NCBI GenBank assembly: GCA_036654095.1
Contig: JAVVSR010000002.1
Coordinates: 1,375-65,374, forward strand
Direction: 5' to 3'
DNA length: 64,000 nt
Source: Clostridia bacterium
GTDB taxonomy: Bacteria; Bacillota; Clostridia; Christensenellales; CAG-917
The notes beneath the pieces were generated by a model. That model was not told where the DNA came from. It did not search any database and worked only from the letters and a program-made list of their open reading frames with translations. Shown piece after piece: positions 53,075 to 63,194 of the stretch. A program made the position numbers and the translations under genes. Position 1 is the stretch's first letter. Every line of letters begins with the position of its first letter.

Positions 53075-54409
53075 ATGGCAAACGACAAAATTTGCTGCTA
53101 CACATTAAACGATATAATAGAATCGGTCGCGCTAGAGGAAGCGGCTATTTCGCATATTTTAAACGCAGAAGGCGAAAAAATACAGAAAGCCGTTGAAAAA
53201 GCCGTCTGTATCGACGATTTATTAAAGGTAAATTGTTCTGTCCAAAACACCATAAGCAATATTACCAATTTAGAATGTGTTTTATTTAATAAATTACGCG
53301 CAGTTTTAAAAGCGGATTGTAAAGAATGTCCATTACCTCCGACCGAAAAAGGCGCAATAAGTATCTGCGTATATTCGTGCGATTCAAAACAACCCTTAAG
53401 CGGTATTGGAATACAAGTGTTTGACAAACATTCCGCTTTGGTTGGTAGCGGAGTTACCGATGCAAACGGAAAATTTTTAATTGATAACTTGCAAAATGGC
53501 ATATATACAGTTGTTTTAAAAGACCCTGTAACGGGTGCAGAAAAAACTTTTACCGCAACTATAACCGATACTCAAAAAATCGTAATTAAACAACTGTGTT
53601 TTGAGCGACCCGAAAAAACTGGCCTCTGCTTATATGTCTTTGAGTGTCAATGCAAATATCCGCTACAAAATATTGAAGTTAAACTTTATGACAACCACAA
53701 TATTTTAATTGACCACAGCGTTACCGATTCAAAAGGAAAATATAAAAAGCTTGACTTGCCATTTGGAACTTATCGGTTGCAACTAACAAACCACGAAACT
53801 ATGGAGGTTAAGGAAATATTTGTTGAAATTAACGCTCAGCACAGGTTTGTAGAAGTTGAAGAATGTTTTATTAATTCAAAAATATTAGAAGGCGTCATAA
53901 AAGTTCGCGTATTTGTTTGCGGAACAACCCGACCTCTTGATTGTATTGAAGTTATCGTTAAAGACCATTTAGGCTCGATTGTAACATCGGGTTTAACCGA
54001 CTCTAATGGCTGCTTCACAACTGAGCATTTGCCATTTGCAACCTATATTGTTGAAATTATTGATAGCGCGACATCTAAAACGGAAATACGCACTGTAATT
54101 TTATCAAATTCACAAAAAATCGTCGAAATAGACGTATGCTTTAAAAGATGTGTAAATAATTTGGTAAATATTTCAGGAGTTGTCACCGACGAATGTGGCA
54201 AACCTATTTGCAATGCGCGAGTAGTAGCGCAGGGGCTAAATAAAATGCAGGCATTAACCAACAACGAAGGTCATTATTCTTTAAGCAGTTTAAAGGTATG
54301 CAGCCAGTTCAGTATTTACGCCGAATGTAACGGACACAGCAGTGTGGCTTTTGTAAACAGCAACCCCGTAAAGAAAAACTATGTTTATAATATTCAAATT
54401 AAAATGTAG
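53075..54409 (+). CDS. protein without a signal peptide: N-terminal ~75-aa conserved helical module plus four Cys-rich prealbumin/CarboxypepD_reg-like beta-sandwich repeats
   Basis: ATG at 53075 behind TAGGGGGT gives [38 protein letters not shown].... It is followed by 4 repeats of ~90 aa with V(T/L)D(A/S)(N/K)G(K/C)(F/Y) and terminal C-F motifs. No signal peptide. Confidence 0.75.
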   Translation: [444 protein letters not shown]

Positions 54410-54438
54410 TAAACATTAAAATATTAAGGAGTAAAAAA

Positions 54439-54723
54439 ATGAGTATGCCCCAAATTGTTCCAAGCGGAACATCAAAATGTCAAGCGATAACCGATATTAT
54501 CGCGTCGGTAGCTTTAGAGCAAGCAGGCCTTTCGCACATTTTAAATGCCGAAGGCGAAAAATTGCAAAAAGGTATTGCGCTACCAAACGTAACCAATGAC
54601 GAGCTTCTGCTGTTAAATTCGTCGGTTAAAGACACTGTAAACGCAATATCTCGCTTAGAAATGTTGCTACAAATGAAACTTGAATTATTTAACGATTGCC
54701 TGTGTGTAAGCTGTCCAACTTAA
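54439..54723 (+). CDS. small stand-alone copy of the helical module (94 aa)
   Basis: RBS AAGGAG. Sequence: [44 protein letters not shown]...[36 protein letters not shown]. Confidence 0.75.
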   Translation: [94 protein letters not shown]

Positions 54724-62879: not shown

Positions 62880-62921
62880 AATTATTTTTTCTCCTTTATT
62901 GTTTTTTCGTTGTCCGCAAAA

Positions 62922-63194
62922 CTATTGACATATTGTTTCTTTAAACATATCAAGTTTTGCTTGTAGTTGCATTTCAAGCCTCGAAATTGCCGAGATTGTG
63001 TTTTTTACCGATTCATTGATTTTAAGCATATCCTCTGCCGTGGCGCTACTGTTATTGACAACAACCGCTATTTTTTCACTCTCCGCATTCAAAATATGCG
63101 CAAAAGCGGCTTCCTCTGTTGCGATTGACGAAATAATGTCGCCAACTGCCTCGCCACGTGTGATTGTACCGGGCTTTATTACTGGCATTCCCAT
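62922..63194 (-). CDS. small stand-alone copy of the helical module (90 aa)
   Basis: ATG at 63194 behind AAAGGAGAAA. Sequence: MGMPVIKPGTITRGEAVGDIISSIATEEAAFAHILNAESEKIAV...INESVKNTISAISRLEMQLQAKLDMFKETICQ. Confidence 0.75.
   Translation of the reverse strand: MGMPVIKPGTITRGEAVGDIISSIATEEAAFAHILNAESEKIAVVVNNSSATAEDMLKINESVKNTISAISRLEMQLQAKLDMFKETICQ

Follow-up and report, generated by a model that had tools for sequence, protein, structure and literature searches.

Two A-ENA family operons predicted to encode decorated spore fibres in an uncultured Clostridia bacterium

A stretch of 64,000 nucleotides from an uncultured Clostridia bacterium (assembly GCA_036654095.1, contig JAVVSR010000002.1, forward-strand positions 1,375 to 65,374), called the window here at its full length, contains four open reading frames (ORFs), A to D, that have in common a module of ~80 amino acids (aa). 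They stand in two pairs, A-B (locus 1) and D-C (locus 2). In each pair, a small protein carrying the module on its own accompanies a large protein in which the module is fused to other domains, referred to below as the passenger (Table 1). The question is what this module is and what two such pairs would be doing in one genome. Judged from sequence and predicted structure, the module is the A-ENA domain, whose family is named and structurally solved. In our reading, both operons are members of PF26595, the A-ENA family (for alpha-helical endospore appendage), the host forms spores, and B and D would build fibres on which A and C are docked; we put the probability of this reading at roughly 0.8.

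Table 1. Positions of the genes and signals discussed, counted from the first nucleotide of the window.
Feature	Positions	Strand	Description
Gene A	53075-54409	+	444 aa; ORF listing; A-ENA domain N-terminal, ~53093-53329
Gene B	54439-54723	+	94 aa; ORF listing; stand-alone A-ENA subunit
Gene C	60510-62879	-	789 aa; ORF listing; A-ENA domain C-terminal, ~60513-60767
Gene D	62922-63194	-	90 aa; ORF listing; stand-alone A-ENA subunit
SigK-type promoter motif of the A-B operon, AC-N17-CATACGCTA	52970-52997	+	motif scan; -10 end 78 nt before the ATG of A
Candidate promoter of the D-C operon	63340-63365	-	-10 element CATATAATA at 63348-63340
Intrinsic terminator of the A-B operon	54759-54802	+	18-pair stem, then T run
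Intrinsic terminator of the D-C operon	60415-60452	-	16-pair stem, then T run
gpr	35703-36632	-	TIGR01441, 240 bits against a cut-off of 120

The shared module and its identity

The sharing of the module by the four ORFs had been noticed in a preliminary description of the window, and the ORF listing and BLASTP bear it out. B matches D with an E value of 2e-29 (46% identity over 89 aa), C with 1e-20 (54% over 71 aa) and A with 1e-19 (49% over 80 aa), a similarity that by these scores is far beyond chance. The alignment, which had been called gapless, is so among B, C and D; A takes one 1-residue gap in the inter-helix loop. In the four-way alignment, 21 columns are invariant. A hidden Markov model (HMM) made from the four copies and applied in six frames to the entire 64-kb window found no fifth copy above noise. 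The placement of the module at the N-terminus of A and the C-terminus of C agrees with the coordinates, as does the N-terminal sequence that B and D were said to share: B begins M-S-M-P-Q-I-V-P and D begins M-G-M-P-V-I-K-P, both fitting M-[SG]-M-P-x-I-x-P, the lock of the family. In B, the lock is followed by a helical hairpin and a C-x-C-x2-C tail. For D, the family-conserved MGMP N-terminus and an AGGAG ribosome-binding site establish 63194 as the start; for A, the start at 53075 is backed by a ribosome-binding site, GGGGG, that lies 8 nt upstream of the ATG.

The repeats described earlier as Ig-like are beta-sandwich domains in Pfam and NCBIfam scans. The passenger of A consists of four CarboxypepD_reg/SdrD_B-like repeats after the module, and that of C of CshA_NR2, SpaA_3, an RrgB-type isopeptide-forming pilin-like domain and three DUF11 domains, followed by the module. 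As had also been noted, secretion signals are missing: no LPXTG occurs in A, B, C or D, and none of the four has a signal-peptide-like hydrophobic N-terminus, the Kyte-Doolittle maximum being at most 1.25 in 15-residue windows starting in the first 45 residues (reaching ~residue 59). An identity as sortase-dependent pilins or LPXTG adhesins is ruled out on these grounds; it is the passengers alone that match SpaA/SdrD/CshA/RrgB-type families.

The preliminary description could place the module in no named family, and here it has been superseded. A profile built from the four modules and compared with PDB sequences matches 9ihh_A, 'Ex vivo spore-silk A-ENA fibers', over its full length (positions 1-91) with an E value of 6.5e-20. 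The precomputed Pfam assignment of proteins identical to A and to B is PF26595 A_ENA, and the same assignment is found on all of the 3638 relatives in a large protein collection. Our own Pfam scan of the module came back empty because the version scanned predates PF26595 and lacks its model; the MurB_C, MukE, TrbJ and SctI matches seen in the Pfam and NCBIfam scans of the module are all far under cut-offs. By tblastn, B is 48% identical (E 1e-13) to the a-ena locus of pBtoxis-type Bacillus thuringiensis plasmids. An AlphaFold2 model was made of B, from 58 homologues (pLDDT 86.5), and the hairpin of A, C and D is predicted from the alignment. Residues 1-12 of the model are extended and residues 13-47 and 53-83 form two helices, the two-helix pattern that had been predicted. 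A Foldseek search of the PDB with this model gives 9ihh_A as the sole significant match (probability 1.00, TM 0.67, 46% identity).

Helical hairpins are common, and weak matches to HopQ and to viral fusion-protein helices do turn up (E > 0.01), which raises the question of whether the likeness is just that of coiled coils or composition, or of a phage-derived or chaperone module unrelated to spore fibres. The match to 9ihh runs over the full length at 46-48% identity, the functional residues are conserved position by position, and B finds no tblastn match in 50,697 phage records. Between them, the profile, residue, Foldseek and phage searches already refute that explanation, and a phage origin of the module is rejected, with no match in that phage collection. 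Among the outcomes that would refute it, the preliminary description had listed a match of the module to a characterised family that does something else, a phage tail-fibre chaperone for example; that check came out negative, with no phage match.

The better-known endospore appendages of the B. cereus group, S-ENA and L-ENA (Ena1A/B/C and Ena3A; DUF3992), are a second comparison. They are likewise spore-associated, self-assembling, ultra-stable and made in the mother cell, properties predicted for fibres of the window proteins as well. They also combine adhesive passengers with a fibre-compatible domain, as in BclA-type tip fibrillae, and the terminal cysteines in the window proteins recall their disulfide connectors. 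They differ in being beta jellyrolls rather than alpha hairpins, in having no sequence match to the module and in being cross-linked by disulfides, not isopeptides. With no Pfam or NCBIfam match to DUF3992 in A, B, C or D and an alpha-helical predicted fold, an S-ENA or L-ENA identity is ruled out.

Cross-linking residues, the lock and the cysteines

In the main text of Sleutel, Sogues and Remaut (Nat Commun 2026; PMC13111695), A-ENA is described as a self-assembling cross-alpha endospore appendage. The subunit is an alpha-helical hairpin of ~100 aa that stacks into a two-start cross-alpha fibre 8 nm wide, with a rise of ~5.4 Å per subunit. Each protomer takes part in up to 10 autocatalytic intermolecular isopeptide bonds of five types (PMC13111695). 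Naming the donor, the acceptor and then the catalyst, these are the N-terminal amine of G2, Q44 and E41 for bond 1; K42, N64 and E39 for bond 2; K84, E29 and E28 for bond 3; K77, E78 and E28 for bond 4; and K76, Q82 and E86 for bond 5. The N-terminal lock, residues 2-14, runs along four subunits. Fibres form by self-assembly in E. coli too, and recombinant A-ENA1 fibres without bonds 1 and 5 are still stable (PMC13111695).

These positions were followed through one HMM alignment, in which the 4 domains of the window stand with 153 others from related loci and with the sequence from B. thuringiensis israelensis (Bti). The related loci come from a scan of species-representative genomes that found at least 469 relatives, of which 76 loci were analysed and their domains classified by six-frame HMM searches; the sample comprises 69 stand-alone domains, 58 in C-terminal fusions, 26 in N-terminal fusions and 4 others. 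The bond 2 triad (Lys42, Asn64, Glu39) is intact in every window copy and present in no fewer than 96% of the 157 related domains. All four window copies have E39, K42, N64, E78 and K84, residues that hardly vary in the family domains of the 76 other loci, and E39, E41, K42, Q44, N64, E78 and K84 are each at least 88% conserved in every architecture class. The bond 3 triad (Lys84, Glu29, Glu28) is complete in A and D. B has Gln at acceptor position 29, as do 33 of the 69 stand-alone proteins, and this residue is chemically able to accept in bond 3. The lysines of bonds 4 and 5 are absent, K77 being Leu in all four copies and K76 being Arg, Arg, Leu and Asn. Since they are missing in the sampled clostridial clade as well (K77 is Leu in 57/69 of its stand-alone proteins), bonds 4 and 5 seem, from this alignment, to be specific to the Bacillus branch.

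Bond 1 and the lock divide the proteins differently. The lock, M-[SG]-M-P-x-I, is present in 59/69 stand-alone proteins, in 6/26 N-terminal fusions and in 0/58 C-terminal fusions, and its acceptor Q44 is conserved in the fusions (57/58 C-terminal and 25/26 N-terminal). Removal of the N-terminal Met is established knowledge, and every protein with the lock has Ser or Gly at position 2, which is compatible with Met removal exposing the donor amine. Among the window proteins, bond 1 is complete in B (lock, Ser2, Q44 and E41). A has no lock and keeps Q44 and E41, so it can only accept. D keeps the lock and Gly2 and has Ala at position 44, a substitution in 1/69 stand-alone proteins, so it can only donate. 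C lacks the lock, keeps Q44 and has Ala at position 41. The perfect lock of D may be held without a covalent bond, or its partner may be Gln44 in the proteins of locus 1.

B and D can be set beside the Bti proteins A-ENA and A-ENA1 (UniProt Q8KNV8 and Q8KNV7; PDB 9ihh), which are also leaderless proteins of ~90-100 aa with an M-G/S-M-P-x-I lock and a two-helix hairpin and are 46-48% identical to B. Of the residues that form the Bti bonds, those of bond 2 recur in all four window copies, whereas the full set for bond 1 is found in B alone and that for bond 3 in A and D. A SigK-type promoter motif (here before A-B), the lack of accessory assembly genes and the presence of paralogous subunit genes in one genome are further points in common. 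The differences are that Bti A-ENA is on a toxin plasmid, whereas the window loci are chromosomal and without Cry/Cyt genes or an adjacent amidase; that K77 and K76 of bonds 4 and 5 are missing, as in the whole sampled clostridial clade; that B-type subunits have four added cysteines and D has no bond 1 acceptor; and that each subunit gene shares its operon with a fusion gene.

Cysteines near the module ends had been remarked on in the preliminary description, and they are there in the window copies: A has 23 (5.2% of its residues), and B has four, one of them (Cys14) ahead of helix 1 and the others in the C-x-C-x2-C tail. B belongs to a subgroup of stand-alone subunits in which a Cys immediately precedes helix 1 and the tail reads F-x-D-C-L-C-x-x-C. 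These traits co-occur among the stand-alone subunits (counts 22/5/15/27, Fisher p 2e-4), and from the alignment the pattern is a real, clade-specific extra. The hairpin ends lie together, and for that reason the four cysteines of B-type subunits could form disulfides within or between subunits, or bind metal. The tail of D is of a different type, I-C-Q, with the single Cys of that protein, and the aligned part of the Bti protein has none of these cysteines. Disulfide-only cross-linking as the main mechanism, toward which the preliminary description leaned, is not supported, since the isopeptide residues are near-invariant, D has one Cys and the Bti protein none in its aligned part. The cross-links of the family are autocatalytic isopeptides from Lys or the N-terminus to Asn, Gln or Glu, and with their residues largely conserved here, disulfides would be at most an addition to the isopeptide bonds expected.

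Operons, promoters and related loci

Each pair has the layout of an operon. A gap of 29 nt separates A from B, and one of 42 nt separates D from C, with the fusion gene first in locus 1 and the subunit gene first in locus 2. The downstream gene of each pair has its own AGGAG-type ribosome-binding site, and a strong intrinsic terminator closes each pair (Table 1). Directly 3' of the A-B terminator, at 54797-54832, are the tandem hexamers (GATTTT)2(GATGTT)3. The closest related records and database matches are labelled uncultured Clostridia bacterium, and an identical B occurs in three NCBI assemblies of metagenome-assembled genomes (MAGs), GCA_036650015.1, GCA_036655295.1 and GCA_036651635.1. 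The host is a spore former, as had been argued from gpr, because the window encodes the GPR endopeptidase.

According to the main text of PMC13111695, A-ENA is expressed solely in sporulating cells, has a predicted SigK site and builds up in the mother cell; after lysis, the fibres cluster spores with toxin crystals. The site upstream of A-B, AC-N17-CATANNNTA, is a perfect SigK-type match, and there is no sigma-70-like site on the + strand of the intergenic region upstream of A. Upstream of D-C, the -10 element CATATAATA is the same as that of the B. thuringiensis a-ena SigK site quoted in PMC13111695. Counting full motifs up to 200 nt upstream, 43/155 family genes have a SigK-type motif as against 5/577 other ORFs (odds ratio 44, p 4e-26), and shuffled upstream regions have a mean of 1.9 and a maximum of 6. 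A reverse-complement control is confounded (23 hits) by divergently transcribed family genes, and we therefore relied on the shuffles and the other ORFs.

The promoter evidence bears on whether the fibres might instead belong to vegetative cells, as a matrix or pilus-like structure for biofilm or adhesion that is released by lysis or another export route. The D-C promoter region does match the sigma-70 consensus at 10/12 positions, passengers of these kinds are usual in the cell-wall adhesins of vegetative cells, and two matches labelled Mycoplasmatota and one labelled Faecalibacterium bear the names of taxa not known to sporulate. Set against this are the lack of a signal peptide, sortase motif or export gene, the enrichment of the SigK-type motif upstream of family genes with its perfect copy before A, the strictly sporulation-specific expression of the characterised member (PMC13111695) and the presence of gpr in the host. 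We consider a vegetative structure very improbable. The three records in question are L016 (CP074575.1, strain zrk6) and the MAG L041, both labelled Mycoplasmatota, and the Faecalibacterium sp. MAG L078. Wrong labels or contamination could explain them, as could cryptic sporulation or fibres that serve some purpose apart from spores.

The related loci come from Lachnospiraceae, Oscillospiraceae, Clostridium perfringens, Sarcina, Erysipelotrichaceae, Longibaculum, Thomasclavelia, Anaerobacillus and many Bacilli MAGs. Cultured organisms with such a locus include Longibaculum muris DSM 29487 (L021), Anaerocolumna sp. AGMB13025 (L033), Flavonifractor sp. AGMB03687 (L069) and C. perfringens (L027). 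Stand-alone and fused genes occur together within 6 kb, the distance used for scoring co-occurrence, in 36/77 loci, and 24 fusions directly adjoin a stand-alone gene on the same strand; in 19 sampled loci, there are fusion genes with no stand-alone gene within 6 kb. The passengers are sorted by the end at which they are attached. Among fusions with an N-terminal domain, 16/26 carry collagen and BclA_C, which follow the A-ENA domain, whereas beta-sandwich adhesin passengers usually precede it: C-terminal-domain fusions have DUF11 (18), SdrD_B (14), pAdhesive_15 (7), Bact_surface_Ig-like (5) and CshA_NR2 (3). A is the exception, being the only protein in the sample with beta-sandwich repeats after an N-terminal domain. 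An orthologue of C, 64-67% identical and with a D-like neighbour, is found in the Lachnospiraceae MAG L015.

Two other arrangements stand out in the sample. The commonest partner of stand-alone genes is a set of 28 homologous proteins of 291-406 aa with a ~250-aa N-terminal domain and a C-terminal A-ENA domain (for example, L006:6363-7349(+), L034:6272-7255(+), L021:5236-6216(+) and L012:4255-5460(-)). The gene is often divergent from the subunit gene, the N-terminal part has no Pfam match in the four representatives scanned, and the family is absent from the window. In Oscillospiraceae/Oscillibacter (L024, L031, L032, L040, L042, L049, L050, L054 and L068), tandem arrays of 2-3 genes encode an N-terminal A-ENA domain, collagen repeats and BclA_C, with no stand-alone gene within 6 kb.

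Fusions of this kind have a precedent. The main text of PMC13111695 lists collagen/C1q, SdrD_B, OmcB (PF01345 = DUF11) and 4Fe-4S passengers, including the SdrD_B type of A and the DUF11/OmcB type of C. The fusion proteins, proposed there as fibre-attached adhesins, are modelled or predicted to dock on fibres of single-domain subunits. As in the window, the passenger-fused domain is encoded beside single-domain genes in B. cereus sensu lato ('A-BclA' ruffles) and Pasteuria ramosa, and homologues are reported in Clostridia and Bacillales (PMC13111695). The pairing of subunit with fusion and the SdrD_B and DUF11 passengers are thus already in that paper. Its main text has the A-ENA domain N-terminal and then the passenger; C and 58/84 of the sampled fusions have it C-terminal. 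What goes beyond that text is the predominance of C-terminal fusions outside Bacillus, the reduced bond set with the cysteine motif and the degenerate bond 1 of locus 2.

The fusions might also work without the fibres. The A-ENA domains of A and C could anchor directly in the coat or exosporium, or A and C could polymerise with themselves into a bottle-brush, with B and D making separate undecorated fibres or basal anchors and the operon pairing meaning co-regulation. A and C keep both donor and acceptor of bond 2, so that self-stacking is possible in principle; A is Cys-rich, like coat and exosporium proteins; and the 19 loci with fusions and no stand-alone gene within 6 kb include the collagen/BclA_C-only Oscillospiraceae. 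Nevertheless, going by the 5.4 Å rise (PMC13111695), hairpins ~1 nm apart in a protofilament would leave little room for a passenger of 350-700 aa on each. The restriction of the lock mainly to stand-alone proteins, with its acceptor Q44 kept in the fusions, fits hetero-assembly, and the 24 cases of immediate same-strand adjacency also speak for a joint structure. Direct anchoring or self-polymerisation of A and C appears unlikely to us, if less so than a vegetative role.

Between the two loci are four - strand ORFs of 254, 311, 235 and 177 aa (54950-57695 and 59464-59997) that by eye from their translations are hydrophobic and probably membrane proteins, with no Pfam match, as well as an RsmH-like methyltransferase. 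Immediately upstream of locus 1, at 50514-52913, is a small Fe-S/redox-type cluster with a Nitro_FeMo-Co domain, C_GCAxxG_C_C, an NUBPL/ParA-type P-loop NTPase, DUF134 and a 64-aa ORF that looks 4Fe-4S ferredoxin-like by eye from its cysteine pattern; the cluster is not conserved with A-ENA loci elsewhere. When the membrane proteins, the methyltransferase and DUF134 were compared with the 76 related loci as possible conserved accessory genes, only sporadic matches were found: the 235-aa protein recurs near A-ENA in one of them (L051, 51% identity), and the methyltransferase has matches in two. These genes were rejected as A-ENA partners and are treated as unrelated. No amidase like that of the Bti cluster is found at the window loci. 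That the neighbours are not conserved and that none resembles an assembly factor fits self-assembly. At 1463-5848 (+), a 1461-aa ORF has a single NCBIfam match, weak and partial, with a score of 50 bits for an anti-phage phosphoesterase model whose cut-off is 420.

A proposed assembly path and its meaning

With the module identified, the four proteins can be given predicted roles: B and D as the major fibre subunits of loci 1 and 2, A as a fibre-attached decoration or adhesin and C as a fibre-attached adhesin. This revises the preliminary description, in which the ~90-aa proteins were accessory docking modules; they are most likely the polymerising subunits. Its broader suggestion of a leaderless assembly system of the mother cell for the spore surface or appendages, with the module serving co-assembly or anchoring, is supported by the A-ENA identity and by the behaviour of the family as described in the main text of PMC13111695.

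We propose the following path. The mother cell would make A and B late in sporulation from the SigK-type promoter, the sigma factor for D and C being less clear, and the leaderless products would remain in the mother-cell cytoplasm. As established for the family, the hairpins of B and D would stack knobs-into-holes into cross-alpha protofilaments. Stacking would place Lys42 by Asn64, with Glu39 as the catalyst, and Lys84 by Glu/Gln29 of a neighbouring subunit, and autocatalytic intermolecular isopeptide bonds would follow without an accessory enzyme, namely bonds 2 and 3 and, in the case of B, bond 1 as well. For this last bond, the lock of B would run along the fibre, its free amine after Met removal reaching Gln44 five subunits away. 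The lock-less A and C would co-stack with B or D, become covalently fixed and display their beta-sandwich adhesin-type repeats. Because both hairpin termini emerge at the same end, a passenger on either side would have a similar geometry, which would account for the existence of both fusion orientations. The 5.4 Å rise per subunit and steric crowding suggest that A and C enter sparsely along the fibre or at its end. After lysis of the mother cell, the fibres would stay with the spore and mediate adhesion of spores to one another or to surfaces or hosts. No dedicated assembly gene would be needed.

Sortase-assembled pili and MSCRAMMs (SpaA, RrgB, SdrD, CshA) reach a similar end by another route. 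Their domains are of the same beta-sandwich families as the passengers of A and C, and they too stabilise a polymer by covalent isopeptide chemistry. They differ in that A to D have no signal peptide, LPXTG or sortase, and polymerisation here would use the A-ENA hairpin in the mother-cell cytoplasm, not transpeptidation at the cell surface.

Several points weigh against this assembly path and its assignment to the window. The organism is known from MAGs alone, so that fibres, timing and localisation are all deduced from the genome. Leu at position 77 and Arg, Asn or Leu at 76 preclude bonds 4 and 5 of the Bti fibre; C has Gln at the bond 3 catalyst position Glu28; and bond 1 of locus 2 looks disabled, by Q44A in D and E41A in C. 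In the D-C candidate promoter, AC has a spacing of 15 nt, which is non-canonical, and a sigma-70-like TTATCA-18-TATAAT overlaps the site, so that its sigma-factor assignment is ambiguous. Bulky passengers may fit within a fibre of ~5.4 Å rise or may be confined to its ends. Finally, B and D may co-polymerise or may form separate fibres.

As to function, with no toxin genes nearby, the fibres would probably serve to aggregate spores or to attach them to hosts or particles. The sampled loci permit a wider and more tentative idea, one that we think more likely to fail than to hold: that in Clostridia and related Bacillota the A-ENA hairpin is a general, portable, self-ligating anchor tag, mostly C-terminal, for covalently mounting leaderless adhesins on spore fibres, with passengers ranging over DUF11, SdrD_B, ice-binding-like domains and the 28-member family with its ~250-aa domain. 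In this scheme, the B sub-clade would add a second, four-cysteine cross-link layer, by disulfide or metal, and mixed use of the two loci, with the lock of D donating to acceptors in A or B, would give combinatorial fibres. If true, it would constitute a display system for spore surfaces that is independent of both secretion and sortase.

What the identification offers at once is that four 'hypothetical proteins' can now be named in the genome annotation. Work on A-ENA fibres has until now been confined to one insect pathogen, in which spores are stuck to toxin crystals by them. The window and the 76 related loci extend this machinery to uncultured gut-type Clostridia and to Lachnospiraceae, Oscillospiraceae, Erysipelotrichaceae and Clostridium perfringens. 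The natural variants among them, with fewer isopeptide bonds, added cysteines and passengers on either hairpin end, could guide nanofibre engineering. The sampled loci tie A-ENA to adhesin-type passengers, not to toxins, which points to spore adhesion, aggregation and host-to-host transmission.

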